Shown in pieces: positions 29,229 through 51,816 of a DNA stretch of 64,000 nucleotides (position 1 is the first letter of the stretch; every line of letters begins with the position of its first letter). The notes beneath the pieces are model-generated. The model was not told where the DNA came from. It made no database searches and was given only the letters and a program-made list of their open reading frames with translations. This DNA is from Macrostomum hystrix. Taxonomy: Eukaryota > Animalia > Platyhelminthes. The stretch lies in the NCBI GenBank assembly GCA_950097015.1, contig CATNEN010000039.1:16368001-16432000 (forward strand), read 5' to 3'. Both the position numbers and the translations under genes were made by a program.

Positions 29229-29449
29229 TCATCGTTTATATTCATCGTTGACATAATGTTCGCAGTTGATATAGGTTTCAGTGAGGTAATTAGATTTAGA
29301 AATCAGTTTAATGCACTTTTCTGATGGAGGGCAAAAATTTTCAGAGAAATGTCCCGGCTGTGGATCTACATCTCGTTTCACGTAGGAAAGGCATGGTACC
29401 AGATCACGTTCTAGATCATTGATCAAGTTAAATACACTCGCTTTATTGC
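29229..29449 (-). pseudogene. Inverted fragment of exon 2 of the Ly6/uPAR-like gene family
   Basis: NKASVFNLINDLERDLVPCLSYV...ENFCPPSEKCIKLI...INCE matches exon 2 of the forward copies; no exon 1 attached. Confidence 0.8.
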
Positions 29450-30090
29450 GAGAACAATTGACAGAACCCCTCCCTGTCGAATGAGATATAGGATCTCGGA
29501 TGTAGGATCAGCGGCATCCCATATTGGATGTATTTTCTGGGATATGGGATCTGTGGCACAGGATGCGGGATCTGAGGTGCGGAGAAATCTGAGAAAGAAC
29601 GATTTGATGTGACTGAAGAAAAGTCACTAGCTTTCGTTAACCTGGCTCTGTCTAAAAAGTCTGTCAAATATGGGCCCATGGGAAACATTCATTCGATGCT
29701 TGTAAAGTGCAATACTTCTTTGTTAGAGAGAAACTCCAGTAAGCTAGAAAGATTTCTAATAGTACAACACAAAAGTTCATCTCAGAAAAGTAATGCATGA
29801 AAAACGCAAAGTAGAGCTGAAATTTGTCATAGACAAAAGGCGGGCACCCCTGTGTCAGCCAGCACTGCCATAGACCGAGCCGGCTCGGACCTGTACTTTC
29901 TGCAGCATATTGAAGGGGCAGCGGCCCGAAACGAAGAATCAAATCCAACAACTGACAACACTGGACTAAGCATTCTGGCCGATTCTACTCAGCCGTTGCA
30001 AACCTGATCAGCAATTCAACTGCCACCTGCCAGCTAATCGACCAAATCTAACTGGGCTATTCGGAATCGAAGCTGGCAATCGTGACGACT

Positions 30091-30782
30091 ATGAAGCTGG
30101 TTATTGTTTGCGTGTTTCTTGCACTTGGAGGCATCCAGCTGGCTGATTGTATTAAATGTATCTGGTCGAGAAATAGAAGAGTAAAATTTTACGAATATAA
30201 GAATGACCATACTGAAACAGATTGTACTCCTGCGAACGTCACCAAGTGTAAAGTGGAATATCATCCAACTCATGGTGATGTTGAATTTCCTGAAGTGGTG
30301 AGCGACCGAATGAATTAAACTACTTTGATTAGCATATCAATTCGAAATCATAAAGCTACAGTTCGCCCTATAAATTTTACCCTATGCGGAAACTTTTTTA
30401 GGCACTGAAATATGGTTGCGGCGCCTGTCCTCCTACAAAATATTGCAAAGACTGCACGGGTGATAACTGCAATAAAGCGAGTGTATTTAACTTGACCAAT
30501 GATCTAAAACGTGATCTGGTACCATGCTTTTTCAAGTCGGAAGTGTTTTTCCCTGGTCAAGGCGTATTCCCAAGTCTCACAGAAGAAAATTTTTGCCCTC
30601 CATCCGAAAGGTGCTTTAAAATGGTTACTAAAAATTCTATACCCGAAGTGCATTTGAAAACCCTCATCGGCTGTGAAGAAGCGGTTAGACGCACTCACAG
30701 AGATTCACAAAATGGCTATCTTTTAAAGCTTGAAGGCTACGAATGCAAACCAAACCCAGAACAATCTGCTTGCATCCCATAG
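30091..30782 (+). CDS. Ly6/uPAR (three-finger)-like secreted protein, copy A; exons 30091-30297 and 30402-30782
   Basis: Signal peptide MKLVIVCVFLALGGIQLADC; IKC at mature N-terminus; phase-0 intron GTG|GTGAGC...TTTTAG|GCA; YGCGACPPTKYCKDCTGDNCN (LU-like C-terminal CxxxxCN); second Cys domain ending SACIP*; no membrane anchor. Confidence 0.7.
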
Positions 30783-31257
30783 AGTCTCCATGCTGATTCT
30801 GCGACTATTCTGCAAAATCTCTCTTATTACGCTTACCGTTTATGTCTATGTCAGCTTATTTCACTTGTCTCGCTAGAAAATTAATGAGGTCTTGAAAAAC
30901 TCGCTGCTTATTTAATGTTTAACTTAACAGACTCCTTCAGCTTTGCTACACTCTAATATTTTTAACACTAACAAATTATTCAAATGCACAAAGCCAAACA
31001 CAATAGCTAATCGACGATTTTTTACGCAAACCATCCCGTATTAATTTTGCGGCGCAACTAATGTTTTCTGCATGCGTTTTAACTTTAATAGAGCTATCTT
31101 TTAGTTGCACAGAGTACAACAATAAAATAGAATGAAAAATCATTTTTGGTTTTAGTAAATTTCACTAGCAAATTTTGCCCCCCTACAGGGAGCAGAAATA
31201 TTTTTAATTCGTCTAGTATATACTTTTTAGCTGCTGTATTTTCAGTTTTTTAAGCTA

Positions 31258-31528
31258 TAATGATCCCCCAGTTGACAATGATCCCCCAGTTGACAATGAT
31301 CCCCCAGTTGACAATGATCCCCCAGTTGACAATGATCCCCTAGTTGACGATGATCCCCCAGTTGACAATGATCCCCCAGTTGACAATGATCCCCCAGTTG
31401 ACAATGATCCCCCAGTTGACAATGATCCCCCAGTTGATGATGATCCCCCAGTTGACAATGATCCCCCAGTTGATGATGATCCCCCAGTTGATGATGACCC
31501 CCATTTATGATGATCCCCAGTTGACAAT
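31258..31528. repeat. 18-bp minisatellite (AATGATCCCCCAGTTGAC)n
   Basis: Visible; homologous arrays at about 41000-41238 and about 52268-52556 downstream of each LU-like copy. Confidence 0.95.
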
Positions 31529-31682
31529 GTTCTCCAGCTGCTTTTGTATAAAATTGAGAAGAACAATTTAGTTAAATGAATATTAGGCAAAATTATTATC
31601 ATACAAACATATATCATTATGACGTTATAAGATAACAAAATCAAAATGTAGACAATTCAGATCAATGACAAAAGAAAAATAG

Positions 31683-31861
31683 ATTTAAATTCTGGTTGGC
31701 TATGATTCAAACGCTGGTTCAGCCATGATTCAAACGCTGGTTGGCTATGATTCAAACTTGGGTTTAGCTATGATTCAAACTCTGGTTGGCCATGATTCAA
31801 ACTCTGGTTGGCTATGATTCAAACTCTGGTTGGCTATGATTCAAACTCTGGTTAGCTATGA
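31683..31861. repeat. 22-bp minisatellite (GGTTGGCTATGATTCAAACTCT)n
   Basis: Visible; homologous arrays at about 41393-41721 and about 52708-52832. Confidence 0.92.
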
Positions 31862-32212
31862 TGATAGGTAGCTGCTTTGGACTGCCCGAAACGGAACTTA
31901 ATTCCCGTCTGACTGAAATCGTCGGGGTGAATACCACAGGCGCGGTACGCTTCGCTGAGGTCCACCTTTGTCATAAAACAGCCTCTGGACAGCTTTATCG
32001 CAAAGTTATCGGCGCACGTGAGTCGCAGCTTCTCCTGGCTGACCCATCTGGAGTTCAAAGTGTTGTTCAAAGGCCGACTGCAGTCGGGAATAAGGCGCAC
32101 ACGATCACTATCTTTGGGCAGGGCTTCAAGGGCGCTGACCACTTTTGGACGTCCGCCGGTCGGGCACTCGCGATACCGCCCACACTTGAGCTCTTTGTTA
32201 ATCTGCGTTTAG
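31862..32212 (-). mobile_element. DIRS/Ngaro-type (tyrosine-recombinase retrotransposon) RT fragment
   Basis: SALEALPKDSDRVRLIPDCSRP...LN...GCFMTKVDLSEAYRACGIHPDDFSQTGIKF follows the DIRS RT pattern (PK..RLI.D.S.P; K.DL..AYR...HP.D...G). Confidence 0.75.
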
Positions 32213-32819
32213 ATTAAACAGTGACTAAGCATGCCAAACTTAACAAACCCAATGTGAAACTAAAGAATCAAATGCTTTCACTGTCAATTACTTTCTTCGA
32301 TCTCTTTCTGACTTGCTCATGCCAGTTTAAAGAAATGACTTCCCTGTACACCTGCTCACTGCTCACTACCTCACTTCCTGTCACCCATTGGTTTTGGTTT
32401 TTTTCCAATGTCCTTGCCGCGGAAAAACCACGGCACGGACAAGGGAAAACCTATTTAGCTTAGTAGAGAAAGGGAACTACATTCAACATTCGATTTGATT
32501 ATATTTACTCATAGTCCGTTACCAACGATGAGTTTAATTTCTGCCTGTTTCTGAAGTTTACTTTTTTGGTTAATATGTGTTGTTGAGAACTGTATTTCAC
32601 ATTGCATGTTTGTAGTTGAACTGTATCTGAGCGTGGTTCCCAGAATATTTAAATGCAGTTAAATAGAAAAAAACGTGTTAATCTCCGGTGGAGTATCCCT
32701 GCTCATGTCTATGGTAAAAGTCAAGGAGAGAGAAAAGAGAAAAAGAAGCTACTACGAGTCAAACCTAAACTACTTTTTTCTGTGTTTGTCCCAAAATAAG
32801 GCACAAATCTGACTAGTTG

Positions 32820-33335
32820 AAATGGGGGGAGCTTTAATTACCGCCGACGATGTAATTGAGAGCTATAATTTTCCGCTCTATCCGATGAAACAACTTCCAG
32901 AATCACAAAACACGGGCCAACTTTTTGTTGCGCAACTTCTGAAACAAGAATCAAGTCACCAGCTCTTTAGACCGTCGAGATATTAAATGTTTCTGGCCGA
33001 AGGCCAGGCCTTCAAAATTTATCAGCATGTCACCCAAATGTGCCTGCATCTCCGTCTTCGGTGTTTACCTGCATTTATCTATACCAATTTGCTGGACCTT
33101 CAAGGGCTACAACAGGTGGAAATAGGCCACTATGGACACCCTGACGCGAATTTATCCAATTTCACTGATCAAGCCTAAATATTAGGCGCAGCTCAACCAC
33201 ATGACACCATCGTCTAGTCTGTCAACCACCACAACCCAACGCTGTTAGCTTTCAGGCGCTGCCAAAAGAAATTGCAAGAGGGATCCCCCTTGGAATAAAA
33301 ACGGGCGGCAAAATGGATTGGTAGTCCTACTTTTA
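32820..33335. mobile_element. Copy of the piggyBac-like MITE (left end decayed)
   Basis: Homologous to 7380-7935; ends TTGGTAGTCCTACTTTTAA. Confidence 0.7.
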
Positions 33336-33740
33336 ATAGGCATGTTGTTCTATTGATTTGTAAAATAAAGGCCTATGTACTTGTGTAACTTATATTAGTG
33401 ACACTGCCTTAAGACCACAAGGAAATCTACGTTACATTAATTTAGTCTTGTCTAGCATATCCTAATAGTCCTTGATTAGGAGGTGAGTCTAGTAAAGCAA
33501 CAGGTTCTACTTTGCACCTGGGTACCTGAGCTCGAATTCAATCTTATTTCTGGCCAAGTCCAAGAAGACACAGTGAGAGTGTACACTGCTTAAAAAATGT
33601 TATCCGCCAGTTTTACAGCAAGGATTTAAAGTGGCCCGAAGCTTACTGCATGACCACTGGAACCCAATATCGCAAGAATAATCCCATACCCTATGCATCG
33701 AGAAAACATGTCCTTGCCAGTGTAATTCAGTCTCTCCTTG

Positions 33741-34108
33741 ATAATCTCACAGAATACTTCTTATTGACAATGTCACCTTGATAATCTCACAGAATATTTC
33801 TTATTGACAATGTCACCTTGATAATCTCACAGAATATTTCTTATTGACAATGTCACCTTGATAATCTCACAGAATATTTCTTATTGACAATGTCACCTTG
33901 ATAATCTCACAGAATATTTCTTATTGACAATGTCACCTTGATAATCTCACAGAATATTTCTTATTGACAATGTCACCTTGATAATCTCACAGAATATTTC
34001 TTATTGACAATGTCACCTTGATAATCTCACAGAATATTTCTTATTGACAATGTCACCTTGATAATCTCACAGAATATTTCTTATTGACAATGTCACCTTG
34101 ATAATCTC
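33741..34108. repeat. 40-bp minisatellite, 9 copies
   Basis: ATAATCTCACAGAATATTTCTTATTGACAATGTCACCTTG. Confidence 0.97.
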
Positions 34109-35235
34109 TTATTGTTAATACGAGCCTATCATCCAGATAAACTCACTCAGATCATGCCGAAAATCTCTACTTGATAATCTCTTCTTGGCAATCTCATTTA
34201 GAAAATCTCTCGTTGATAGTCTCAGCCAGATAATCTTTACTTGACAATGACACCCAAATAATATCGTTCTGAAAATATAAGCATCTGTTATTCCTCGAGA
34301 ATACCAAACTAAGGAAATTTACTATTGAAAGCTGCTTACAGCAGATAATATTTAATATTTTTATGCGAGATAATATTATCCTCTAAAAAATCCACTATTC
34401 ATATTTTTACACCTCGAGACTCGAACGTTTAAAGTAGAGCTTTGGATGCAACCTTACAAAAATGAATTAAAAAACACATTTGTTTTTCGAAAGCGAACTT
34501 TCAAGTGTGCAAGGCGCTTTTCCGCTGCACACATGTGCACGCTTGTACTCGCACACATGCTAGCAGAAGTGAGTGCTATAGACTTTAAAAATAGAAAACT
34601 TCAAAGCCGGGGATTTACCGCGGTTCAACCCAGGTTTGGCCTTGGAAACGCCGCTCTGGTTTAAATATGAAACTTTTTTAAACCTGTTTATTAGTGCTGA
34701 AATTTTGAAATTTGAAATTATACTAGAAGAATTCACGTGGCGTCGTGAAGTAATCCTTGGCTTGGTCGTCGTCGAAAGAAAGTTTCGAGTAAGAATCTAA
34801 ATCAGCTTGTCAAACGAGCTTTAGACTAGGGCAAATATATTTTCAGGGAAACAGCTTTTTGTTGTTGAAGTAAGATCCAATTTAAATAAGATAGACAATG
34901 AACTACAATATTTTACTTAGGCCAAAAAGAAGTAAAAATCATTACTTGTTTACATTTTCAATGCATAAGCAGACTAAGCATATACGCGAGTCCATAATAC
35001 TCATAAAAATTAATAATTAATAATTTAACTGAAGTAATGCATTGTGTCTTGCTCCCCGAATCCCCGACCTTCAACCACAAAGCTACCCTTCCTGCTACTC
35101 TAAGTGCACCCAATCAGCGCCGTACATTAGAAAGCTCAGCGTGTCAAATAGATGTTTCTAAAATTAGCCACTTGACAGACTACAAAAGCGTGAAGGGGGG
35201 CCTGCACCCGTTTATTTCCAGGACGCACAAGCCTG

Positions 35236-36290
35236 ATGATGGCCCACGCCAACGACGAAAGCCTTGCAAATGGGCAGCCTCACGACTCCATGCATCATTC
35301 TCTGGAGCTTACCAGTGACAGACACGAAGAAAACTGGCAGCAATGGGCTGCTGAACCTGTCAGGCAGTACAGGCCAGCTCAAACAAGCTCATCTAGTGCC
35401 GAAGCAACCCTGACAGTGCGGCCAGACCAGCTAGGTCTCCTGACAGATAAGCAAGCCTGCATGTTGGATAAATTAATGCACAACTGCAGTGATATTGAGC
35501 GCTGCATTCTGCTTGGCTGCTTGTTGCACATCTACACACGGACCAGGAACGTTTTCTTGGCTATGAGAGTCGTCTCCGATCGTTTGGAGACTCGCCTGAC
35601 GAAGCGTACGCTCTTCGATGGGCGCAGAGCGGATTCTACAGCGAGGGCTTTCGCCGAGTCGTCTGCTGCCACTGCGGTATGCAGTACGTCCATCCGAGGT
35701 CCGAAAATGAAGTTGATCGCAAGAAGTGTCCCAGCCAGAGTGATGAATCGCATAGTTGCGCGCTCTCTTGGCTTCTGAACTTTATCGACAATGACGGAGA
35801 TGTGAAAGGGGCGTCAAAAGCTGAGCTTTTGAAAAGCTGAGTAGGACGAGTTGAGGCAGCACTGGGAAGCCAGGCTGTGCAACTCGCCGATTCGTTCAGA
35901 TACTCGAGAGGATTGGATCTGGCAGTGCTCATCGCAGCGTGTGACCAAGCTCCTACTCACCCGAGGGCTGGCGAGCTCATTCAGTTGAGGACAAACGCTC
36001 CTGAGAACAGTTCAACGGAATTTCTTTGGCTGGAAGCCAAGCCGGCAGGACTGATGGACAAGAACGAGCAAGCCTCAGCAAGCTCAGTTGATGGAGGACA
36101 ACTACAGCGGGCTTCGGCAAGCAGTAATGAAAGCGACCTGTGTCAAATGTGCTCCTGCAGGCGAAGGGATCGAATAACTCTACCCTGCGCACACCTGAAT
36201 TAGTTCTGTCATGTCTGCTTGAGTAAAGCTTGCGAGTGCCCCGCTTGCCACTCCGTAATTTTAGGCATGCTCGTTGCAAATATAAGCTAG
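35236..36290 (+). pseudogene. Intronless IAP-like pseudogene (BIR-UBA-like-RING)
   Basis: After CILLGCLLHIY...VFL a frameshift (about 35560) gives YESRLRSFGDSPDEAYALRWAQSGFYS...CCHCG; in-frame TGA at 35838; AVQLADSFRYS...AGELIQL; RING CQMC...LPCAHLN*FCHVC...CPAC with in-frame TAG at 36201. Confidence 0.8.
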
Positions 36291-36779
36291 TTGATCCCCA
36301 AAGATGCAACATTTACTGGTCATCAAAATAAATTGACACAAAAGCGAGTTATTTGCTTTCTCGTTTCATCGTATCTATCCATTCATTTACTCAAATGACT
36401 CGTTTTGGTGCACATTTTAGTGCAGTGCTCAAATAAATGTTAATATAAAATAATGTACAATCACGTCAACTGGCCTCTACAGATGGCTGTTTAAATGAGC
36501 CTTTAGACTCGACAAGACTGGGTAGAATAGTACAGCACTAGCGAGGAGAATACGAGAATTAAACATTTTTTGCTTTCCTGTAAGCTAAGAAGGACCTTAA
36601 AATGTTGTCAGTGTGTTAAAAATGTACTTGTACAGTATAGGCTAATGTACATTCATACCATTGCTCATGCCACTCCAGTGTTCATGAGCATTCGTTGAAA
36701 AATAAATTGTAATAAAACTTGTTCAAATTCTTATACTCGTAGCTTTATGATTTCGAATTGATATGCTGATTAAATTAGC

Positions 36780-37001
36780 TTAATTCATTCGGTCGCTCTC
36801 CACTTCGCCTTCAGTTGGATGATATTCCACTTTACACTTGGTGACTCTGGCAGGAGTACAATATATAGCAGTATGGTCATTCTTATATTTAGAAAATGAT
36901 ACTCTTGTATTTCTCGACCAGATACATTTAATACAATCAGCCAGCTGGATGCCTCCAAGTGCAAGAAACACGCCAACAATAACCAGCTTGATAGCCGTCA
37001 T
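36780..37001 (-). pseudogene. Inverted exon 1 of the LU-like gene with mutated splice donor
   Basis: Signal peptide + IKCIWSRN...C...C; donor GTGAGC changed to GAGAGC, so it reads into an intron stop; homology covers about 36740-37245 including the 5' flank. Confidence 0.75.
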
Positions 37002-37245
37002 GATTTCCAGCTTCGATTCCGAATAGCCCAGTTAGATTTGGTCGATTAGCTGGCAGGTGGCAGTTGAACTGCAGTCAATTCTTGATCCGATTTGCAACGG
37101 CTGAGTAGAATCGGCCAGAATGCTTAGTCGAGTGTTGTCAGTTGTTGGATTTGATTCTTCGCTTCGGGCCGCTGCCTTTTCAAAATGCTGCAGAATATGC
37201 AGGTCCGAGCCGGCTCGGTCTATGGCAGCGCTGGCTCACACAGGG

Positions 37246-38460
37246 GCCTCTCGTGCAGACTGTGAGGTCGTCAGCGTATTGAGTCAGCTGGATCTGGCCA
37301 GGAGGAGCCGGGATGTCGCTCATGTAGTAGGCAAAGAGGAGCGCGGACAGAACCCCTCCCTGAGGCACGCCCGCTCTGAGACGCCTGGCCGAGGAGAGCG
37401 AGCCGCGGAAGAGGACTCTCGTGCTCCGACCGCACAGGTACGCACTGAGCCACCTGGTGAGGCATTTCGGCAGGCTGGAGTTGAAGAGCATCCGGAGGAG
37501 CTTGGCGTGATTGACTTTGTCGAACGCTTTTTGCATATCGAGTGCGATGAGCAGAGTCCTCTCAGCAGGTTTAGGTTGGTTAAGGCCATTGCTGATGGAG
37601 CTGGTGAGGCTGGTGAGGGCGGTGGCGGTGGAGTGCCCCGCGCGGAAGCCATGCTGCCAGGTGGGGAGCGGGAGTGCGCTCTGAAAGGTGGACAGCAGGC
37701 ACTTTTCCAGCAATTTGGCGGCTGGAGAAAGGATCGAGATTGGCCTGTAGGAGGAGCTGCAGGTAGCATCTTTGTTCCTTTGAGAAGAGGCACTACCTTC
37801 GCAGATGTCCAGGTGCTAGGAACGATATACTGGTGGTAGGGCTCAGATTGAATAGGCAGCAGAGGAAGGCAATTCCCCTTGGTCCAAGATGCTTCAGGAC
37901 GATTGGGGAAAGGCCATCCGGTCCGGTGGCTTTGGACGGCGAAGAGCTTTTGATGGCCGACGTGACGTCACTTGGACGTGAGCAGGAAGCCATTGGTGGG
38001 GGAAAGCATGTCCCTTTTGAGGCGTCTGTCTTCCGGGGTGGCCGGATGAATTTGATCAAAGAACTGCCTGTTGGAGGCCTTGGCAATGCGTTTGGGATCA
38101 GTTAAGGGAAGCTCGTCAAAAAGGATGCCAGCGGAGTTTTCTTTGTGGCCTTTACCGCTGAGGTTCTTGATGGTTCGCCACAGTTCAGAGACCTGGTGCT
38201 TGATGCTGAACTGCTCAAGCTTTTCCCTCCAGTTCGCCCGGCGAAAGTTGGAGCAGATCTGGTTGATTTCGTCTTGAATGATGGTGATAGCTTCCGTGCG
38301 GGTTATCCGTGCGAATGAGGTCTCTTTGCTTGCAGAGGGTGTCGGCTTCCGGCGGGAAGTGGGGACGAAAATTTCCCAGCTAGGATGTGGTGCTTAGCTG
38401 CTTGAAGGACAGCTTGCCTGAAGGCTTTCTCTCCAGGATGAGGATGCGATTTGGGATCTA
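37246..38460 (-). mobile_element. Non-LTR retrotransposon (LINE) ORF2/RT fragment, truncated just after YADD
   Basis: KATGPDGL; SYRPISIL; QHGFRAGHST; LDMQKAFDKVNH; GVPQGGVLSALLF; QYADDL; frameshifted. Confidence 0.92.
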
Positions 38461-39071
38461 AGGTCTGTCGAATGAGATATAGGATCTCGGATGTAGGATC
38501 AGCGGCATCCCATATTGGATGTATTTTCTGGGATATGGGATCTGTGGCACAGGATGCGGGATCTGAGGTGCGGAGAAATCTGAGAAAGAACGATTTGATG
38601 TGACTGAAGAAAAGTCACTAGCTTTCGTTAACCTGGCTCTGTCTAAAAGTCTGTCAAATATGGGCCCATGGGAAACATTCATTCGATGCTTGTAAAGTGC
38701 AATACTTCTTTGTTAGAGAGAAACTCCAACAAGCTAGAAAGATTTCTAATAGTACAACACAAAAGTTCATCTCAGAAAAGTAATGCATAAAAAACGCAAA
38801 GTAGAGCTGAAATTTGCCATAGACAAAAGGCGGGCACCCCTGTGTCAGCCAGCGCTGCCATAGACCGAGCCGGCTCGGACCTGTACTTTCTGCAGCATAT
38901 TGAAGGGGCAGCGGCCCGAAACGAAGAATCAAATCCAACAACTGACAACACTCGACTAAGCATTCTGGCCGATTCTACTCAGCCGTTGCAAACCTGATCA
39001 GCAATTCAACTGCCACCTGCCAGCTAATCGACCAAATCTAACTGGGCTATTCGGAATCGAAGCTGGCAATC

Positions 39072-39930
39072 ATGACGACTGTGAAGCTGGTTATTGTTGG
39101 CGTGTTTCTTGCACTTGGAGGCATCCAGCTGGCTGATTGTATTAAATGTATCTGGTCGAGAAATAGAGGAGTAACATTTTACGAATATAAGAATGACGAT
39201 ACTGATATATATTGTACTCCTGCCAGCGTCACCAAGTGTTACGTGGAATATCAACCTAAAGGTCCAACTCATTTATTTTTTCATCCCGAAGTGGTGAGCA
39301 ACCGAATGAATTAAACTAATTTAATTTGCATATCAATTCGAAATCATAAAGCAACAGTTCGCCCTATAAATTTTACCCTATGCGGAAACTTTTTAGGAAC
39401 TGAAATATGGTTGCGGCGCCTGTCCTGCTGCAAACTATTGCAAAGACTGCACGGGTCATAAATGCAATAAAGCGAGTGCATTAAACTTGATCAATGATCT
39501 AGAACGTGATCTGGTACCATGCCTTCACTACGTTAAATCGCTGCCGAATGACAATGATCCTGATCAAAGCGAAAAAGTGCAAGGTCCAACTGAAAATTTT
39601 TGCCCTCCATCAGAAAAGTGCTTTAAAATTGTTGCTAAGAGGTCTGTACCACGAATGCATTTTAAAACCATCATCGGCTGTGAAAAACGGCTTCAATACA
39701 TACACGAAAAAGTATTGAGAAAGGAACATTTAATGCTTGAACGATACGAATGCAGACCAAACGCCGAAAAATCAGATTGTATCCCATTGTACACTCCGCC
39801 TGCAACCCCGACTACAACCCCGACTGCTGTGGATGCTTCGCACCAAAATTTGCTGTTCGTATCCGTAGTGCTCGGCTGCACGACGCTGCTAACGATGCTG
39901 CTTGCACAGTTTATTTGGTTTTGTTGTTGA
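39072..39930 (+). CDS. Ly6/uPAR-like protein, copy B, with Thr/Pro stalk and C-terminal hydrophobic segment (GPI signal or TM); exons 39072-39293 and 39397-39930
   Basis: Signal peptide; phase-0 intron; CTGHKCN; second Cys domain; YTPPATPTTTPTAVDASHQNLLFVSVVLGCTTLLTMLLAQFIWFCC*. Confidence 0.78.
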
Positions 39931-40149
39931 TTTTTATATCTTTTCTTTTGAATCTTATTTTCATGTTTTGTGTACTGAATGCACTGAAAGCTCTGCCTGA
40001 AAATGTGCTGAAAAATCAAGGCGCTAAAAGTCTCCTCTCAATAACAAAAACTGACCGATTTCCGTTGCAAATCCCAAGCATGCCAGGCTTGTCATATTTT
40101 ATGACAAAATATACATATATATCTGTTCCGAATTATTTTTATATATATA

Positions 40150-40410
40150 TGAGAACACTAATCTGAGATTGCTCAGGTGAGATTAAGAACACTCAGATCA
40201 AAGACTGATCAGGTGAGATTGAGAACACTCAAATCAAAGACTGATCAGGTGAGATTGAGAACACTCAAATCAAAGACTGATCAGGTGAGATTGAGAACAC
40301 TCAAATCAAAGACTGATCAGGTGAGATTGAGAACACTCAAATCAAAGACTGATCAGGTGAGATTGAGAACACTCAAATCAAAGACTCATAAGGTGAGATG
40401 GAGAATCACA
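40150..40410. repeat. 36-bp minisatellite (GATCAGGTGAGATTGAGAACACTCAAATCAAAGACT)n, about 6-7 copies
   Basis: Visible. Confidence 0.93.
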
Positions 40411-40999
40411 TAATAGAATATGAAAAATGAAATTTAAGTTTCAATAAAATTTAAATTTAAGTCGGCTTACTTAAAAAACAGAGGTCTGACCACTGATTGT
40501 ATCCCAGTTATTAGTGAAATTAGTCTCATCTAAGCTGATTCTGCGACCATTCTGCAAAGTCTCTCTTATTACGCTTACCGTTTTTTTCTATGTCAGCTTA
40601 TTTCACTTGTCTCGCTAGTAAATTAATGAGGTCTTAAAAAGCTCGCTGCTTATTTAATGTTTAACTTAACAGACTCCTTCAGCTTTGCTACACTCTAATA
40701 TTTTTAACACTAACAAATTATTCAAATGCACAAAGCCAGACACAATAGCTAATCGACGATTTTTTACGCAAACCATCCCGTATTAATTTTGCGGCGCAAC
40801 TAATGTTTTCTGCATGCGTTTTAACTTTAATAGAGCTATCTTTTAGTTGCACAGAGTACAACAATAAAATAGAATGAAAAATCATTTTTGGTTTTAGTAA
40901 ATTTCACTAGCAAATTTTGCCCCCCTACAGGGAGCAGAAATATTTTTAATTCGTCTAGTATATACTTTTTAGCTGCTGTATTTTCAGTTTTTTAAGCTA

Positions 41000-41238
41000 T
41001 AATGATCCCCCAGTTGACAATGATCCCCCAGTTGACAATGATCCCCCAGTTGACAATGATCCCCCAGTTGACAATGATCCCCTAGTTGACGATGATCCCC
41101 CAGTTGACAATGATCCCCCAGTTGACAATGATCCCCCAGTTGACAATGATCCCCCAGTTGACAATGATCCCCCAGTTGATGATGATCCCCCAGTTGACAA
41201 TGATCCCCCAGTTGATGATGATCCCCCAGTTGACAATG
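41000..41238. repeat. 18-bp minisatellite (second array)
   Basis: Same unit as 31258-31528. Confidence 0.95.
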
Positions 41239-41392
41239 TTCTCCAGCTGCTTTTGTATAAAATTGAGAAGAACAATTTAATTAAATGAATATTAGGCAAA
41301 ATTATTATCATACAAACATATATCATTATGACGTTATAAGATAACAAAATCAAAATGTAGACAATTCAGATCAATGACAAAAGAAAAATAGA

Positions 41393-41721
41393 TTTAAATT
41401 CTGGTTGGCTATGATTGAAACTCTGGTTTAGCCATGATTCAAACGCTGGTTTAGCCATGATTCAAACTTGGGTTTAGGCATGATTCAAACTTGGGTTTAG
41501 CCATGATTCAAACTTGGGATTAGCCATGATTCAAACTCTGGTTTAGGCATGATTCAAACTCTGGTTGGCCATGCTTCAAACTCTGGTTTAGCCATGATTC
41601 AAACGCTGGTTTAGCCATGATTCAAACGCTGGTTGGCTATGATTCAAACTCTGGTTGGCTATGATTGGTTGGCTATGATTCAAACTCTGGTTGGCTATGA
41701 TTCAAACTCTGGTTAGCTATG
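41393..41721. repeat. 22-bp minisatellite (second array), followed by a short DIRS RT remnant to about 41810
   Basis: Same unit and the same junction GCTATGATGATAGGTAGC as at 31856. Confidence 0.9.
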
Positions 41722-41811
41722 ATGATAGGTAGCCGCTTTGGACTGCCCGAAACGGAACTTAATTCCCGTCTGACTGAAATCGTCGGGGTGAATACCTTAG
41801 GCGCGGTACGC

Positions 41812-42353: not shown

Positions 42354-42624
42354 TGTGCCGATCGCAGCCACGTAATGTTTATTTTTATTTGACGGAGAAC
42401 AGGTTACCCGGTGGGACATTACTATACGCCCCCTCTGTATGCCCCACCTAGCGCCCCGAGCCGCGCGCCAGTCGCCCGGGCGTATAGCATGTCCGCGCGC
42501 CCTTTTGGTCGCACCGCCGGCGGGGGGCGCAGGGTAAATAAAATTCGGCGTAATTTCCTCAGTCTACTGTTAGTAGGCTGTGCTGTACTTTTTGTGCTAT
42601 AACTGAACGCCGTAAAAAGCCTAG

Positions 42625-42835: not shown

Positions 42836-43269
42836 TGTACTTTTTATACGTATGTTTCATTCTGTGATAGGCATGCTTTATGTATTAAGCGGCAGTCACT
42901 TTTTAAATAAAAAGTATTGAACATGCTCATGTTAATTTTCGATTCGTCACCGCTAAATAAATGGTTTACGAATACGTCCATTCTAGTCTCATTAAATCCT
43001 TTTGACGCAGCTAAAGGTACAAATTTATTATCAAGTTCAAAGCGAATATGCATAAGAAACATGTTATAAAGCACATTCAGAAAGTGAAAAGCCATGATTG
43101 AAAAGAAGAGTAACGGAAGTACAGACATTATTTATATTGCAATGTTTTAGAGTGTCATCATGCAAAGACAGTACGGTATAAGTTTTTATTTTATGTAACT
43201 ACAATTAGCACGAAAATTATTCCACATTTTGTCCCCGTCATGCCAGCTCTGCCAATCGTCCCTGTCAAG

Positions 43270-43641
43270 CCACCTGCGCGCCAGTCAGTCGTCCCTGCCA
43301 TGCCACCTGCGCCAGTCGTCCCTGCCATGCCACCTGCGCCAGTCGTCCCTGCCATGCCACCTGCGCCAGTCGTCCCTGCCATGCCACCTGCGCCAGTCGT
43401 CCCTGCCATGCCACCTGCGCCAGTCGTCCCTGCCATGCCACCTGCGCCAGTCGTCCCTGCCATGCCACCTGCGCCAGTCGTCCCTGCCATGCCACCTGCG
43501 CCAGTCGTCCCTGCCATGCCACCTGCGCCAGTCGTCCCTGCCATGCCACCTGCGCCAGTCGTCCCTGACATGCCACCTGCACCAGTCGTCCCTGCCATGC
43601 CACCTGCGCCAGTCGTCCCTGCCATGCCACCTGCGCCAGTC
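43270..43641. repeat. 27-bp minisatellite (GCCAGTCGTCCCTGCCATGCCACCTGC)n, about 13-14 copies
   Basis: Visible; open in several frames. Confidence 0.95.
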
Positions 43642-43799
43642 TGCATTAGCTTGAGGACAAAAGCGTAGGCTGGGAGGCTCCAGAGAGTCATCCAGGTATA
43701 CCTAAAGTAGTCAATTTTAGAAAATATCTTTTAGAGACAAAATTAAAACGGATTGTTGGCCAGACTGACTAGACTGACATGGATATTTCTACGGGGTTT

Positions 43800-43925
43800 T
43801 TGTAGGGGTTGAAGCCTGCAGGTCGGGGTTGATTCCAGACTTTACTGGTTCAATTTGTGTCCTTTAGCAAGACACTTGACAGCTCTATATTGCTTCATTT
43901 TACCCAGCTGTAAAATGGTGACCAA
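43800..43925 (+). mobile_element. CORE-like SINE remnant
   Basis: TTGTGTCCTTTAGCAAGACACTTGAC...TGCTTCATTTTACCCAGCTGTAAAATGG, similar to 27410-27470. Confidence 0.55.
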
Positions 43926-44621
43926 CTTTGGCTGGGGTTAATAAAGTTAGGCGCGGCGTGCTGCTGCTACCCAGATACTTTTGTCTGTCTATAAATATAC
44001 ATCTCTACATGTGGCATATATCGTAAATCAAAAATGTGCTTTCCATCTCAGCTGGAGGACTTCAGCTGCGTAGACTCTGCCTGCATATTTGGCCGTGCAG
44101 CGCCACCTCTCTTCACTGTCTCTTGACAGTGACAACTCAGGTACTGTTAGATTTTTCAACTCACATGGACGTTCAACTAATTCGCTCGCCTTCACTTCGA
44201 CAACCTGCCTGTCCTCTTCAAATAAAACTAGGAACTTCATGACTGCAGAAAGTACTTCAAAATTTTGAAATTTTTAGAACGACAGGAGGTTAGGGGAGCG
44301 TGAAGATACGCTAAAGCTTTAGTTATATGTCAGATCAAACTGCACGGCCTAGACAGTCGGAAGACATCGCGCGCCCATTGGTTAGTTTTGAAAAATCCTC
44401 TAACCCACTAACCGATAGCTATCAATTGTGCCATTTATGCCGACTATGGAAAATGGAGTCAGTTTGTTTTGGGGAAATCTTTGTATTGTAGCTATTGAAA
44501 GTGCGTTGAAAGTGAAAGACTAAGACTACGACTAATACTAAGACTGAGACTGAGACTAAGACTGAGACTAGGACTAAGACTAAGATTAAAGACAGTACAG
44601 AAAGTAATAAACATTTACAGC

Positions 44622-45780
44622 ATGTCCTCTAGGAATGTTAGAAGACTGACAAGCAGGAGTTTGATGGCCGTGTTTAGAGAAGAAGAGAGGCCCAGAAGTG
44701 TCCAGATTGGAGGGCAGTCGGCTAGTCAAGGCGATGGAGACTGAAGAAGATTTTAGTAGGGTAGAATTTGACGACTTCTACCTTCTACTATTACTATAAC
44801 AGGAAAGTTTTGTCTTCCTGTTACCTTCTGCCACAGCAACAGAGAGATAAACGCTCCACGGGCCAGAGGCCCGTTTCTGTGTGGACTCCGGAGTCACATG
44901 AAAAGCGGCAGCGAAGCTCTGCCTCTCGCTTCCAGTGTATTTAAATTCAAGCAGCGCGCACAACAGAGGCAGAATGGGGAGAGAGGGAGAAACGCTGGGA
45001 GATTGCTAACACAGGGGCAGCTGTTTCTTTGTCCCACACGCACACGCTCCCCAGCGAACGCTTGCCGAACTTCTTCCTCACATTCCTGGGCCGTATCGAT
45101 CCACGGACGCCTCGTCGTGTACGCGAATCATGTGAGCCATGCAAATACAATGTTCTGAAGCGTATTTGCAAGGCTTACAATTACTGCTATTCCACGGAAA
45201 GGCATGCTAATCTATCGGATTCAGCGAAAAGCTGCATCGAGGTATTCGTCGAACAGATGTCAACAATGAACAGATTTGGCCAACAATGAATTAGCTACAA
45301 CATTCATGCACTTCTTCATCTCGACCAGTTTGTTAGAAGGCTAGGTAACTTACATAATTTCAGTACATTTCCATTCGAAAGCTATCTGGGAGCCATCAAG
45401 AGAAGGGTCAAAGTGGACCAGGCATGTCGCTGCTCATTCAGTTTGTCAAGCACTACAAGTACGAAATATGTACCCCAGCCAGCCAGCAGAAACAACTATA
45501 GAATTCAGCACGAAGAAGGGTGACAATTGCTGCTTCGTTGGGACGACATGCATTCATATTGATGAAGTTAAACCGGATGGCACAGTAAGTGGCAGAGTGC
45601 TCCAGGAATTCGACAGTCCCTACAACTATCCTTTCGACTCCCTGGCACTTGGGATTGGAGTTTACCGCTTAACATCCGAAATCGCAACTGGCCGTCCGGA
45701 GCAAAAATGTTGGCTGCTTCCGAAAGCTCTTACAGTGGCCCAAAATGACGACTTTTTTGCGTGATTCCGCTAACGGGACA
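44622..45780 (+). mobile_element. Decayed EnSpm/CACTA (CMC)-type transposase
   Basis: About 45290-45410 reads ISYNIHALLHLDQFVRRLGNLHNFSTFPFESYLGAIKRR, the CMC motif YN.H.L.HL...V...G.L..+S.FPFE..L..+K; stops, frameshifts and deletions; outer limits approximate. Confidence 0.7.
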
Positions 45781-46431
45781 GGAAAGTTAGGCTTCGCTTA
45801 TCCCCTTCTGTGAGTGCAACATTTTCATAAACTTTCTTATCCACTCTATAAACTACTCAAAACTTGGATTTGGGGTTTTCGCTTCCCATATTCGCTTGCA
45901 ACGCAGACGAGCGGACCAGGGACCACAGACGGAGATAAGCTGAAGCGCATTGTGTCTGGTGTGCAATAAGAAATAGGTTTTCTTGTTTACCCTTGAAATG
46001 CATACAGCATAACTTTGACTTGACTTGCATCTGCGGTGTGGCAAGGTGGCAACTTAAAATCCACTATTCTATGGAAATTCGAAGCAGCTAGACAAGTGTC
46101 CAGGTAGCTGTTATTTGCCAACTCAACTAGCCAGGATCTATGCCATTTGTCATGGCTAAGGTGTTATTGTACATACACAATTTATACTGTTCATAGAACA
46201 GTGCATGTATATACAATTTCTTTCAGCATCTTCGCATCTTAAAATCGAACAGAAAACACCAAAATTTACTGCCAGGATCTATGTCATTTGTCAGGCCTAA
46301 GCTATAATTATTATCTAATATATATAAGACATACAATTTATCCTGTTTATACAATTGTGTTTATCTACATAAAATTTCCTTCAGCATCATTGCATCTGAA
46401 AATAAATGGAAAAAACACAAAAATGCTATTT

Positions 46432-46890
46432 ACATACCCGCACATCTTGCACATGCCCGCACATCTTGCACATGCCCGCACATCTTGCACATGCCCGCAC
46501 ATCTTGCACATGCCCGCACATCTTGCACATGCCCGCACATCTTGCACATACCCGCACATCTTGCACATGCCCGCACATCTTGCACATACCCGCACATCTT
46601 GCACATGCCCGCACATCTTGCACATGCCCGCACATCTTGCACATGCCCGCACATCTTGCACATACCCGCACATCTTGCACATGCCCGCACATCTTGCACA
46701 TACCCGCACATCTTGCACATGCCCGCACATCTTGCACATGCCCGCACATGTTGCACATGCCCGCACATCTTGCACATGCCCGCACATCTTGCACATGCCC
46801 GCATATCTTGCACATGCCCGCACATCTTGCACATGCCCGCACATGTTGCACATGCCCGCACATCTTGCACATGCCCGCACATCTTGCACA
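46432..46890. repeat. 19-bp minisatellite (CACATCTTGCACATGCCCG)n, about 24 copies
   Basis: Visible. Confidence 0.97.
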
Positions 46891-47219
46891 TCACTTCAAA
46901 GTTGCTTACTGTAGGCGCACAAACGTCACACAGATTTCATCATGTTGCACTGCTACGTACGTATGTTGTATACAGACTGAACACATGCGCGATAGAGGCT
47001 TCATTTCAATTTAAAACTTGTTCTTTTACGAATACAAACCATTAAATTAATGTCTATAACTGTATACAGACTTAAACAGTGACTAAGCATGCCAAACTTA
47101 ACAAACCCAATGTGAAACTAAATAATCAAATGCTTTCACTGTCAATTACTTTCTTCGATCTCTTTCTGACTTGCTCATGCCAGTTTAAAGAAATGACTTC
47201 CCTGTACACCTGCTCACTG

Positions 47220-48110
47220 CTCACTACCTCACTTCCTGTCACCCTACTGCATCTCACTACCACACTTCCTGTCACTCTACTGCAGCTCACTACCACACTT
47301 CCTCTCACTCTACTGCAGCTCACTACCACACTTCCTCTCACTCTACTGCAGCTCACTACCACACTTCCCCTCACTCTACTGCATCTCACTACCCCACTTC
47401 CCCTCACTCTACTGCATCTCACTACCCCACTTCCTGTCACCCCTACTGCATCTCACTACCACACTTCCTCTCACTCTACTGCATCTCACTACCACACTTC
47501 CTCTCACTCTACTGCAGCTCACTACCACACTTCCTCTCACTCTACTGCATCTCACTACCACACTTCCTCTCACTCTACTGCAGCTCACTACCACACTTCC
47601 TCTCACTCTACTGCAGCTCACTACCACACTTCCTCTCACTCTACTGCAGCTCACTACCACACTTCCTCTCACTCTACTGCAGCTCACTACCACACTTCCT
47701 CTCACTCTACTGCAGCTCACTACCACACTTCCTGTCACCCCTACTGCATCTCACTACCACACTTCCTCTCACTCTACTGCATCTCACTACCACACTTCCT
47801 CTCACTCTACTGCATCTCACTACCACACTTCCTCTCACTCTACTGCAGCTCACTACCACACTTCCTCTCACTCTACTGCATCTCACTACCACACTTCCTC
47901 TCACTCTACTGCATCTCACTACCACACTTCCTCTCACTCTACTGCAGCTCACTACCACACTTCCTCTCACTCTACTGCAGCTCACTACCACACTTCCTGT
48001 CACCCCTACTGCATCTCACTACCACACTTCCTCTCACCCTACTGATCTCCCTCTCACCCTACTGCTCTCCCTCAAACCCTACTGCTCTTCCTCTCACCCT
48101 ACTAATCTCC
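47220..48110. repeat. 33-bp pyrimidine-rich minisatellite (CTCACTACCACACTTCCTCTCACTCTACTGCA[G/T])n
   Basis: Visible. Confidence 0.97.
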
Positions 48111-49229
48111 CTCCCAGTTGATTGAAGCCCATAGTTACCGAAACTTCATATAAGTATTTTTGCATAGCGACTGATTCGCTATAGTTAACGGGCGGTGCCA
48201 AACGCAGGATTTGAGACGTGCGAAAGTGAGCCGCCACAGTCCGTTCTTTATCCTTTCCATTGTCCTTCCATTGCCTTGGCATTTTCCATGACAAATTCTA
48301 CCACTAAGCTTCTAAGGTGCGATTGGGGATCAGACACGTGCAAAACACGTGTGCAAAACATCGAATACGAATGTCAAGCTGCTGGCTGCAGAGCTGTTCA
48401 GTCCATGGACTGAGTTGCGCCATGCTGACCCCAATTCACCCCAGCAACTCCTGGTACAGCTGGGTGTTTTTTACTAATTATTAAACATTAAGCAGCCATT
48501 TTTTAAACATTGGCTAGCTATTACACTAAGTTGTCATGCAGACTCGTGTAGTTGCAGTCTACATGTACAGGTGTCATTCTTTACATGTAACTTCACATGC
48601 ACATTTCCATGCAGGCCTCTTGGATAGGAGGAGTTGAGCAATATACTCGTATATATTCCTTCTTTCGGAAGGAATGAGCTATAGAATATGACTGGAACAC
48701 TATCATATCGGTTCTACTAATAGTAGCATATGGCGAATTAATCCTCCTCCAAATATTTTCGCAAACGAAAAAAATTAAGAAAATTTAGTAGAGAATTTCG
48801 AAAAAAAAATGCTAATTATTGTGCCATACTTCAGAGCAATTAGACATGTTAAAGGTGAAATAATTTTTCTGCAACCACAAGTCACGAGTACTACACGAAA
48901 AGAAAAAAAACCGAGACAGTCGGAAGACATCGCGCGCCCATTGGTTAGTTTTGAAAAATCCTCTAACCCACTAACCGATAGCTATCAATTGTGCCATTTA
49001 TGCCGACTATGGAAAATGGAGTCAGTTTGTTTTGGGGAAATCTTTGTATTGTAGCTATTGAAAGTGCGTTGAAAGTGAAAGACTAAGTTTTCCAGGCATT
49101 CTCGAAAAAATCAATTACACTCACGCACGCACGAATACAGCGCAAAATTAGTTTATAGATGAGTATGACTATGAGTATGCTTACTTGTATAAAACATCAA
49201 TAAAATTTATTAATTAATGAGAACTACCA

Positions 49230-49790
49230 ACTACCAAATGAGATGGCTGCGGAGCTGGTTAACCAACAGGCTGGCGCAAGTGCGATACGAAGGTAAATTG
49301 AGCAAGGTTGTCCGTATGAAGCAGGGTTTGCCACAATGCTCAGTGTTATCGCCGGTGCTGTTTTTGATCTTCATTGATCTGCAGCAAAGAGGAGGAGGCG
49401 GTAAAAAAGGTGGAGAAGGCGGTGAAGCTGGTGGAGGAGTGGAGCAGCAGGTGGCTAATGCCGGTCTCTGCAGGGAAATACACGTTGACGCTGTTCAGCC
49501 TTGGCAGGAAAAGCAGGATAGAAGGGAGCCGGATGGTTAAGATCGGAGACACTCCAATGAAATGGTGCCAAAACCCGAAGTTCCTAGGGTTAACTTATGA
49601 TAAAACGCTAAGGTTTGACAAGCACGTGCAAGAGATTCTGGCGTCCTGCAAGAACCGGATACAATTGCTCAGAAGACTAGCAGGCAGCGACTGGGGCTGG
49701 CCGAGTAACATCCTCAGGCAAACGTACACTGCGTTAAAAGCCTCAAAGATCATTTATGGGGCCTAGCGAGAACCCCAAGGAAGCTCTGAG
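49230..49790 (+). mobile_element. LINE RT fragment (C-terminal half; YADD segment deleted)
   Basis: RWLRSWLTNR...QGLPQCSVLSPVLFLIFI; then EWSSRW...KFLGLTYDKTLRFDKHV...LLRRLAGSDWG...LRQTY. Confidence 0.85.
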
Positions 49791-50278
49791 GCATTGGGAG
49801 TGGTGAAGAAGGTGTAAAAAGAAGCAAGAATGTTGACGACATCAGAAACAATAGCAGCAGCAGCAACAACAACAACCCTATCAGCATCCATTACAGAAAC
49901 AGCAGCAGCAGCAGCAACAGAATTCACTGCAACGTTAGCCAAAGCCACCTTTGCGGCCTCGAGTAAACGATTCAAATTTTGGTTCTCATGGCTATCGATC
50001 GTCCCAAATATCGATTCCCAGGACTAAAATCTCTAAGCTACACGCTTAATAAACTTATACACTGTTGTTAAAATTGTACAAGCCGAAAGTAATGCTGCTG
50101 GAACAAGCCACAAGCCAGATAAAGAATCGTTCTTCAAAGGTATCCAATATCTGTCAATATTGTTTACCGTAGCACCCTGTACAAATGCACAAATACAAAA
50201 TTATGTGAAAAGCGTGTTAATCGTATTGTGAAATATTCGTAACATTTCAAGACAAACAGACAAGTTCTTCCTGAAGGT

Positions 50279-50530
50279 TCTCCGCCGATTTTAAAGACCC
50301 GCGGGTGGTCGCGCAGCTCGCGGACGGGCTCTGGCCAAGCCGCGCCCAGCCCTTGGCAGCCGCCTGGATTGCGCACGACCAGCCAGTAGTTGCCGCCGCA
50401 GCTCGGCAGGCCACGGCAGCCGGTCCGGCCCGCGCCCAGCCACAGCAGCACCAGCCCGGTAGGCGGTCCGGTCTGTTTTTTTTCCACCGGAAGTTCGGCT
50501 CCAAGTCCCGGCGTTGTGAACCAACACGAA
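50279..50530 (+). mobile_element. Gypsy gag C-terminal fragment (same family as 41812-42353)
   Basis: SADFKDPRVVAQLADGLWPSRAQP...FFHRKFGSKSRRCEP (decayed zinc knuckle). Confidence 0.7.
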
Positions 50531-50739
50531 ATTTTTGTATATTGCAAATTAGTCAGTTCTCAGTTTCCACGCGGCTCGAAATAGATCGAAGCCTTTTAAT
50601 TGTCTCAAAATGATATTTCTGATCATGGAAACACTGTGCGATCCAAACGAATGCCAGTGAGCTTCGACCTGCTGCCAGATAGGCTATAGGATATTCTGAA
50701 AACACACTGGACGCTCGGCAGCGCGGAATTTAGAAACTA
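50530..50739 (+). pseudogene. 5' stub of the IAP-like gene at 54370, fused to the LU-like 5' flank
   Basis: Near-identical to about 54290-54500 (ATGGAAACACTGTGCGATCCAAA...GAATTTAGAAACTA) with a 2-bp deletion and CAG>TAG. Confidence 0.85.
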
Positions 50740-51074
50740 GAAATATATCTAATAGTACAACACAAAAGTTCATCTCAGAAAAGTCGTGCATGAAAAACGC
50801 AAAGTAGAGCTGAAATTTGCCATAGACAAAAGGCGGGCACCCCTGTGTCAGCCAGCACTGCCATAGACCGAGCCGGCTCGGACCTGTACTTTCTGCAGCA
50901 TATTGAAGGGGCAGCGGCCCGAAACGAAGAATCAAATCCAACAACTGACAACACTCGACTAAGCATTCTGGCCGATTCTACTCAGCCGTTGCAAACCTGA
51001 TCAGCAATTCAACTGCCACCTGCCAGCTAATCGACCAAATCTAACTGGGCTATTCGGAATCGAAGCTGGCAATC

Positions 51075-51816
51075 ATGACGACTGTGAAGCTGGTTATTGT
51101 TTGCGTGTTTCTTGCACTTGGAGGCATCCAGCTGGCCGATTGTATTAAATGTATCTGGTCAAGAAATAGAAGAGTAACATTTTACGAATATAAGAATGAC
51201 GATACTGATATATATTGTACTCCTGCCAGCGTCACCAAGTGTTACGTGGAATATCAACCTAAAGGTCCAACTCATTTATTTTTTCATCCCGAAGTGGTGA
51301 GCAACCGAATGAATTAAACTAATTTAATTAGCATATCAATTCGAAATCATAAAGCAACAGTTCGCCCTATAAATTTTACCCTATGCGGAAACTTTTTAGG
51401 AACTGAAATATGGTTGCGGCGCCTGTCCTGCTGCAAACTATTGCAAAGACTGCACGGGTCATAAATGCAATAAAGCGAGTGCATTAAACTTGATCAATGA
51501 TCTAGAACGTGATCTGGTACCATGCCTTCACTACGTTAAATCGCTGCCGAATGACAATGATCCTGATCAAAGCGAAAAAGTGCAAGGTCCAACTGAAAAT
51601 TTTTGCCCTCCATCAGAAAAGTGCTTTAAAATTGTTGCTAAGAGGTCTGTACCACGAATGCATTTTAAAACCATCATCGGCTGTGAAAAACGGCTTCAAT
51701 ACATACACGAAAAAATATTGAGAAAGGACAATTTAATGTTTGAACGATACGAATGTAGACCAAACGCGGAAAAATCAGATTGTATCCCAGTTATTAGTGA
51801 AATTAGTCTCAACTAA
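51075..51816 (+). CDS. Ly6/uPAR-like protein, copy C, secreted form; exons 51075-51296 and 51400-51816
   Basis: Nearly identical to copy B but ends SDCIPVISEISLN* with no stalk or hydrophobic tail. Confidence 0.75.

Follow-up and report, generated by a model that had tools for sequence, protein, structure and literature searches.

Divergent coding cores between near-identical flanks in a spliced, putatively three-finger-like gene family of the flatworm Macrostomum hystrix

Hypervariable three-finger protein families of snakes and salamanders are known to retain frozen non-coding DNA, and its cause is disputed between selection on the untranslated regions (UTRs) and segment switching. According to the available portions of PMC6487043 and PMC8904931, plethodontid modulating factor (PMF) of salamanders comprises many co-expressed three-finger isoforms with approximately 30% amino acid identity and with UTRs that are approximately 98% conserved. 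PMF is the closest analogue of the gene family described here, in which divergent loops and conserved flanks stand side by side as the divergent isoforms and conserved UTRs of that pheromone do. The family is located in a 64,000-nucleotide stretch of M. hystrix (assembly GCA_950097015.1, contig CATNEN010000039.1, positions 16,368,001 to 16,432,000 of the forward strand), hereafter called the window, which represents one haplotype. Self-comparison and translation revealed a single two-domain cysteine-rich family there, consisting of three whole genes (A, B and C), a fourth gene that is truncated where the window ends (D), and three fragments in inverted orientation (F1, F2 and F3); all copy counts and features given below refer to this window.

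The gene models were read from the sequence, with one GT..AG intron of 103-104 bp per gene, in phase 0 and inside domain 1. On the plus strand, copy A was found to comprise a 5' flank of upstream DNA and 5' UTR (29474..30090), exon 1 coding sequence for the signal peptide and the first part of domain 1 (30091..30297, from translation, with the donor GTGAGC next to it), a 104-bp intron at the predicted tip of loop II (30298..30401, from intron alignment), exon 2 coding sequence for the end of domain 1, the linker, the six-cysteine domain 2 and the stop, without a tail (30402..30782, from the list of open reading frames and the domain 2 model), and a 3' flank common to the downstream flank of B, with AATAAA at 31121 and two minisatellites (30783..31950). 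Copy B, also on the plus strand, comprises a 5' flank (38465..39071) in which the main cover by sequencing contigs starts near 38960, exon 1 coding sequence (39072..39293, from translation and alignment), a 103-bp intron bridged by contig joints (39294..39396), and exon 2 coding sequence whose final part encodes a Pro/Thr stalk followed by a hydrophobic C-terminus that resembles a glycosylphosphatidylinositol (GPI) signal (39397..39930, from the list of open reading frames). A tail module of 708 bp (39787..40494, plus strand) holds this stalk and hydrophobic end, its own 3' UTR and a 35-bp minisatellite, and the A-like downstream flank follows (40495..41811, plus strand, from self-BLAST and alignment).

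Copies A and B differed at 6 of 607 sites in the 5' flank (1.0%), 3 of 66 in the signal region, 28 of 150 in mature exon 1 (19%), 5 of 103 in the intron (4.9%), 6 of 72 in the rest of domain 1, 90 of 306 in the linker and domain 2 (29%), and 8 of 464 in the 3' flank up to its first repeat (1.7%), then 1 of 146 and 3 of 88. In 50-column windows the differences were 0 upstream, peaked over the loops (9/38, 20/42 and 22/50) and fell between them, reaching at most 24 of 50 sites. The initial annotation, made from the sequence alone, had described near-identical flanks, signal peptide and intron in A and B together with divergent mature loops, and these region-wise counts bear it out far beyond chance, silent sites included; the comparison of exon with intron divergence that it had proposed gave 19% and 29% in the mature exons against 4.9% in the intron, and all peptides that it quoted were recovered at their places in six-frame translations. 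At fourfold degenerate sites, A and B differed at 6 of 37 positions compared to 13 of 936 flank sites (p = 3.8e-5), and A and C at 7 of 37 compared to 40 of 936 (p = 0.0013); in the intron, A and C differed at 4 of 103 sites, which is the flank level. Silent sites of the core are thus approximately ten times more diverged than the flanks. The A-B identity reaches approximately 490 bp beyond the upstream edge of the main contig cover and continues for approximately 800 bp past AATAAA, through two minisatellites. Since it passes the likely transcript ends, the flank identity was judged not to result from purifying selection on UTRs alone.

The site patterns of the triplet A, B and C were then compared between the flanks and a neutral core made up of the intron and the fourfold sites. 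Among 936 flank sites, private changes numbered 7 in A, 5 in B and 32 in C, so that C is the outlier; among 140 neutral core sites they numbered 10, 1 and 1, respectively, and A is the outlier (Fisher p = 1.8e-5 versus the flanks). A-private changes by themselves amounted to 10/140 in the neutral core compared to 7/936 in the flanks (p = 9e-6). These findings show that the flank tree, ((A,B),C), conflicts with the core tree, ((B,C),A). Copies B and C differed at 18 positions in 1056 bp, clustered at both ends, with 6 differences in the terminal 75 bp of domain 2 and 5 in the 857 bp before it (p = 7e-5). This clustering suggests that the terminal part of B, with its tail, likely came from a different donor. 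Taken together, the divergence of the silent core, the tree conflict and the identity beyond the transcript ends require that coding cores have been exchanged between copies. Exchange alone is nevertheless insufficient, because the A-C fourfold sites exceed the flanks while the A-C intron does not. In the distal 5' flank, A is identical to B, while D, an otherwise near-identical duplicate, has five private changes (38550-38730 compared to 63098-63278), and these may mark another conversion tract.

Selection on the mature region was estimated pairwise by the Nei-Gojobori method, with a bootstrap interval for the difference between nonsynonymous (dN) and synonymous (dS) divergence. For A-B, dN was 0.297 and dS 0.207 (omega 1.43; interval of dN-dS -0.03 to 0.19); for A-C, omega was 1.22 with an interval that includes zero; and for B-C it was 0.46 on 8 changes. 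In a codon site model of our own coding, applied to A, B and a single fragment (three sequences in all), M2a was favoured over M1a with 2dL of 18.2 (p = 1e-4) on 174 codons, and with 2dL of 6.3 (p = 0.044) on the 133 codons left after gap-flanking loops were masked, with 38% of sites at omega 3.75. Some sites thus look positively selected, weakly. The dN/dS check suggested at the outset therefore came out divided: a site class with omega above 1 was favoured (p = 0.044 when masked), and the pairwise values of 1.2-1.4 were not significant. Likewise, diversifying selection as the explanation of the locus retained the support of the site model and proved insufficient alone, since silent sites diverge as well and the flank and core trees differ.

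Eight public sequencing runs contain part of the stretch; none is recorded as RNA, and four were aligned on B. Depth was zero in the bin 39315-39371, inside the B intron, in all four runs, and contigs joined across the intron. The contigs of these runs behave as spliced transcripts, in agreement with what had been predicted, and the family is real and expressed. All five joints for which an inner length was given are in frame relative to B, and the loop tips that they encode differ from every one in the window. In run X1, a single 162-nt unitig (2 differences) holds all depth over the 5' UTR and leader, and the loops are split into many contigs. The B tail (39803-39930) was matched with 0 differences by contigs of two runs, and a short C-type ending was found in a third. 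One loop variant was letter-identical in runs labelled as three organisms. At 39007-39133, runs X3, X5 and X6 contain abundant contigs that share the 5' UTR and leader at approximately 90% and then continue into unrelated coding-like sequence, which suggests an N-terminally extended or different member, or an unrelated protein that uses this leader as well.

The encoded protein begins with a hydrophobic leader, present in all copies by inspection, followed by domain 1, which has nine cysteines and closes with C-N; a short linker connects this to the six-cysteine domain 2. Cysteine positions are constant across A, B and C and coding indels preserve the frame, which upholds the earlier view of a retained cysteine scaffold. 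Cleavage after the first cysteine is, we assume, permitted by the usual small-residue rule, and domain 1 would then match the eight-cysteine short three-finger pattern. The C-x-x-C and C-N motifs both occur in domain 1, the first depending on a cleavage site placed by eye, and neither occurs in domain 2. A and C terminate just after domain 2, and B goes on into the Pro/Thr stalk and hydrophobic end (up to 1.98 per 19 residues in hydropathy) without a cytoplasmic tail. The product of A is predicted to be secreted, and the end of B may act as a GPI anchor signal, to judge from its resemblance to one. Among A, B and C the tail module is present only in B, so that the match of B to the 3' flank of A starts only past it. 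A 12-bp sequence occurs as a direct repeat on either side of the module, at 39775 and at 40495; in C, which lacks the module, this sequence is present once.

When compared to the Ly6/uPAR rule of a fluke screen (PF00021-type, at least 10 cysteines in 120 residues), as given in the available part of PMC8763315, domain 1 has 9 cysteines, or 8 should the signal peptide include the first one, and domain 2 has 6; ten in 120 residues are reached only by spanning both domains. By the three-finger definition in the accessible text of PMC3812095 (at least six half-cystines for B1, B2 and B4), domain 2 has six and domain 1 eight or nine with fitting spacing, and the Asn beside the last half-cystine is found in domain 1 and not in domain 2.

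A model of domain 2 built from a four-sequence alignment had a predicted local distance difference test score (pLDDT) of 60.5 and a predicted template modelling score of 0.45, with five strands and a helix in loop III in three-finger order. In a wide structural search with this model, three-finger-fold chains made up 17 of the best 50 rows and covered most of the model, and PsaD made up 8; all matches were below Z 5, with PsaD (Z 4.2-4.4) tied with three-finger chains at the top. Of the three-finger chains in these rows, TEX101 scored best, with Z 4.0 and a root-mean-square deviation (rmsd) of 4.2 over 67 aligned residues; the match to uPAR had Z 4.2 and rmsd 3.6 over 70. The matched chains TEX101, CD177, irditoxin, GPIHBP1, PSCA, Prod1 and others are ones that we take to have the three-finger fold. 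ESM Atlas leads were the TGF-beta receptor II ectodomain (0.79) and DUF753 (0.76), both below 0.9, and are weak pointers to families of the three-finger fold type. Foldseek returned nothing under E 0.001 for the domain 2 model, with type I BMP receptor chains at ranks 1, 3 and 4, and the fold search with a single-sequence model of B exon 2 (pLDDT 48) was uninformative.

Sequence searches gave no homologue. No LU-clan family of Pfam was found among six and five exon or domain queries (E up to 5 and 10, respectively; domain 1 scanned as two exon halves), none of 14 candidates remained at E 0.1 in the protein search with B exon 2, and none of 378 at E 1 when exon 1 was aligned with longer proteins. 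A PDB sequence search produced a single chance match (E 0.66), domain 2 and exon 1 showed no similarity when their profiles were compared, and a 29-base motif was absent from the metagenome contigs searched. Three matches from a search of representatives were long repetitive proteins with unrelated domains and were rejected as repeat artefacts. Cysteine spacing and the weak structural matches together make two three-finger domains likely. Of the tandem two-domain three-finger-like family first proposed, the signal peptides, fixed cysteines, variable loops and splicing therefore stand; the fold itself is favoured and, at Z of approximately 4, unproven.

The remaining members are dispersed over the window. 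Copy C (51075..51816, plus strand; exon 1 51075-51296, exon 2 51400-51816) has a B-like core without the tail, a 5' flank truncated in its upstream part (50734..51074, plus), and a 3' flank (51817..52834, plus) approximately 7% diverged from A and B (31/449 and 30/450). Copy D (63013..64000, plus) consists of a flank, exon 1 (63620-63841), the intron and the start of exon 2 at 63945, and its coding part is identical to B. Fragment F1 (29229..29447, minus) is the broken linker and domain 2 of a divergent paralogue, with 48-49% identity to exon 2 of A and B by tblastn; its loops I and II are shorter, and its reading runs on to a stop in loop III. Fragment F2 (36739..37246, minus) is the inverted 5' flank, exon 1 and intron start of a further paralogue (self-BLAST and alignments), without a canonical donor, and F3 (61287..61794, minus) is its duplicate. 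D and F3 sit in a 5.56-kb duplicate of 33893-39452 (99.46%, 30 differences); this block could represent either a genuine duplication or another haplotype. F2 abuts a broken reverse-transcriptase fragment of a long interspersed element (LINE; 37180..38464, minus, RVT_1 E 3e-29) that lies between F2 and copy B. A 17-bp piece of this fragment (37346-37362) lies exactly at the junction of F1 and the flank of copy A (29460-29476), and F2 and F3 abut the LINE reading frame, hinting that the inverted fragments may have originated by template switching at the LINE. The start codons of A and B have changed places: the ATG of B corresponds to a GTG in A, and three codons further on A has ATG opposite a GTG of B (30082-30093 compared to 39072-39083); the upstream ATG is kept in F2 and F3.

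Elsewhere the window is repeat-rich, with BIR- and RING-encoding frames and LINE and integrase fragments. IAP-like frames lie among the family copies at 1645-1971, 8200-9850, 27795-28726, 35499-36290, 54313-55203 and 60047-60840. Matches were obtained at 9187-9834 (BIR E 2e-9, RING E 5e-9), 1645-1968 (BIR E 3e-6), 27795 (BIR, weak) and 28421 (RING E 1e-10), and several of the frames seem to be disrupted or to carry BIR domains that have degenerated. An exon for ribosomal protein S9 at the window start is 88% identical to a Macrostomum lignano protein, which agrees with a Macrostomum source that is probably not M. lignano. A 17-kb array of 8-bp-type units without CpG (10015-27229) is unusually long for a simple satellite. 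Two related reverse-transcriptase-like fragments (31852-32208, and 56487-56804 on the minus strand) may belong to a tyrosine-recombinase (DIRS-type) retroelement; the one scanned had no Pfam match. The stretch 53124-54221 (minus) is a broken long-terminal-repeat retrotransposon integrase (rve E 1.5e-15).

The explanation that we favour, with somewhat better than even confidence, is a spliced multigene family in which gene conversion swaps old, divergent cores between young, near-identical copies and selection keeps the loops different. Conversion or unequal crossing-over would homogenise the promoter, signal peptide, intron and flanks; selection would act against exchanges that erase loop differences, and linked silent sites would stay diverged too, producing a divergence peak of the kind modelled under gene conversion in the part of PMC3924837 available. 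Recombination at the 12-bp repeat would add or remove the anchor tail. The loops would bind a fast-changing partner, and the common promoter and signal peptide would release the variants as a mixture. Several observations weigh against this explanation. The recipient of the foreign core cannot be fixed (B-C core versus flank, p = 0.15), and the evidence consists of only three whole copies from one haplotype. One-ratio omega was 0.71 unmasked and 1.27 masked; the site model used three sequences, recombination inflates such tests, and the unmasked result leans on loops that are possibly misaligned. Variants among contigs over the mature region were 18 nonsynonymous to 2 synonymous, no clear excess over a neutral 3.5:1 (approximately p = 0.15 by hand arithmetic; 20 classified of 40 listed rows among 167, one leader-region row excluded). 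The loop of B itself is in none of the listed joints. The fold was modelled for domain 2 (pLDDT 60.5), for which three-finger chains shared the top scores with PsaD, and nothing usable came out of another Atlas search.

As an arena for these proteins, reproduction (seminal fluid or sperm surface) is narrowly the first guess, at less than even probability; surface defence comes close behind, and a toxin role is improbable. Reproduction-related genes evolve faster across Macrostomum, according to the portion of PMC8662610 available, and the many prostate-limited secreted candidates listed in the available part of PMC5977470 could include a homologue. A stronger form of core exchange, which we consider rather unlikely, is a cassette system for diversity: a pool of loop variants, with the inverted pseudogene fragments as silent donors, would be shuffled into identical expression shells, possibly within a lifetime, and the 12-bp repeat would switch between anchored and secreted forms. 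If true, it would be the three-finger counterpart of gene conversion in antibodies or surface antigens, serving recognition of mates, self or pathogens.

Among the other readings, that of the initial annotation took A and B as the products of a recent duplication, after which strong positive selection acting on point mutations made their loops diverge, without exchange. A dN of 0.30, far above the non-coding divergence, the favoured site class with omega above 1 and the in-frame indels are consistent with it. Selection on amino acids, however, neither raises silent divergence tenfold (10/140 versus 7/936) nor changes the tree between flank and core, and the pairwise dN-dS intervals include zero; we regard this reading as very unlikely. 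Little more probable is a mutational mechanism aimed at the mature exons, which could be hypermutation of a local kind or the switching of segments suggested for three-finger toxins of snakes, and which would increase silent and replacement changes equally. The exons show elevated silent divergence and the A-C intron does not, exon 1 has 21 transversions to 7 transitions compared to 17:21 in the flanks, and loop segments are unalignable replacements as in the ASSET genes (PMC2474615, as far as available). Nevertheless, B, C and D have cores that are identical or almost so, which means that not every copy mutates at a high rate; the ratio in exon 2 is unremarkable (52:47), and the tree conflict would be left unexplained. 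Least probable of all, and scarcely credible, is that the near-identical flanks are an assembly artefact, in which haplotypes were joined into chimeras or wrongly entered as duplicates. A second haplotype could account for the 5.56-kb block at 99.46%, but this doubt is limited to D and F3 at most; the flanks of A and B have private differences, and in independent contigs many loop variants follow on from a single conserved 5' unitig.

Two further readings concern the role of the proteins. Short-chain snake toxins have an eight-cysteine pattern, and a similar pattern in domain 1, snake toxins among the weak fold matches and high contig depth would fit gland toxins or deterrents in a rhabdite or prey-capture secretion. 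Two domains and an anchor-like tail are nevertheless unlike snake toxins, and many non-toxic LU proteins matched at equal or higher Z, which leaves this role doubtful at best. More plausible, while still tentative, is that the same genes with the same exchange encode epidermal or mucus defence proteins binding microbes, parasites or non-self tissue, with the anchored form as receptor and the soluble form as decoy. Tailed and tail-less forms were both found among the contigs, pseudogene fragments with conversion resemble MHC and R-gene clusters (PMC3924837, available part), and an identical loop variant under three organism labels is what balancing selection would be expected to give, though these coded labels may stand for a single species. 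BIR/RING (IAP-like) genes lie between the members of the cluster, but gene neighbourhood does not equal function. Of the schistosome CD59-like proteins, the accessible text of PMC3812095 describes partial surface localization; two members were assayed for complement inhibition, and the residues for inhibition were reported there as not found in that family.

Returning to core exchange combined with selection, these genomic copies provide a direct signal of recombination for families in which the cause of the conserved non-coding DNA is disputed, namely the disagreement of flank and core trees and an identity that reaches into probably untranscribed DNA. Macrostomum is tractable by RNA interference and in situ hybridization, which makes both the mechanism and the binding partner testable. 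A description of the family was not found in the literature searched on Macrostomum with Ly6, three-finger or hypervariable proteins, and the available part of a paper on a two-finger toxin fold (PMC12514838) showed no link to it.

Compared with the single-domain PMF, the flatworm family has two domains and an optional anchor tail, and no sequence homology was found. The UTR conservation of PMF is ascribed to purifying selection, whereas conservation in the flatworm enters probably untranscribed DNA and minisatellites and is accompanied by the flank/core tree conflict. A signal peptide followed by two tandem cysteine domains is shared with amphibian SPF and with the double-domain SmLy6D of Schistosoma, and second domains of SPF also alter the C-terminal motif, as domain 2 does here, as far as the sources available describe them. 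SPF and SmLy6D have 10 and 10 cysteines, unlike the 8-9 and 6 of the flatworm, which has no Pfam or sequence match; the two-domain form probably arose by a duplication independent of theirs. Snake toxin ASSET genes resemble the family in having similar introns, exon segments replaced by unrelated ones and fixed cysteines, according to the part of PMC2474615 available. They have two introns and one domain, and canonical recombination was judged unlikely by the authors in that part, in contrast to the single intron and the whole-core recombination pattern found here. The hallmarks of snake three-finger toxins, a single domain and three exons, are replaced by two domains, one coding intron and, in B, an anchor-like tail. 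Red/green opsin exon 5, MHC and R genes, as treated in the available part of PMC3924837, likewise combine low flank and intron divergence with a peak over selected sites, and pseudogenes are possible donors; the flatworm locus differs from them in its very high peak, its many paralogues, its loops of variable length and an anchor module that was apparently gained or lost. The family thus appears to be an undescribed, divergent three-finger-like one, whose mode of evolution is known in kind from these systems and is unusually clear here.

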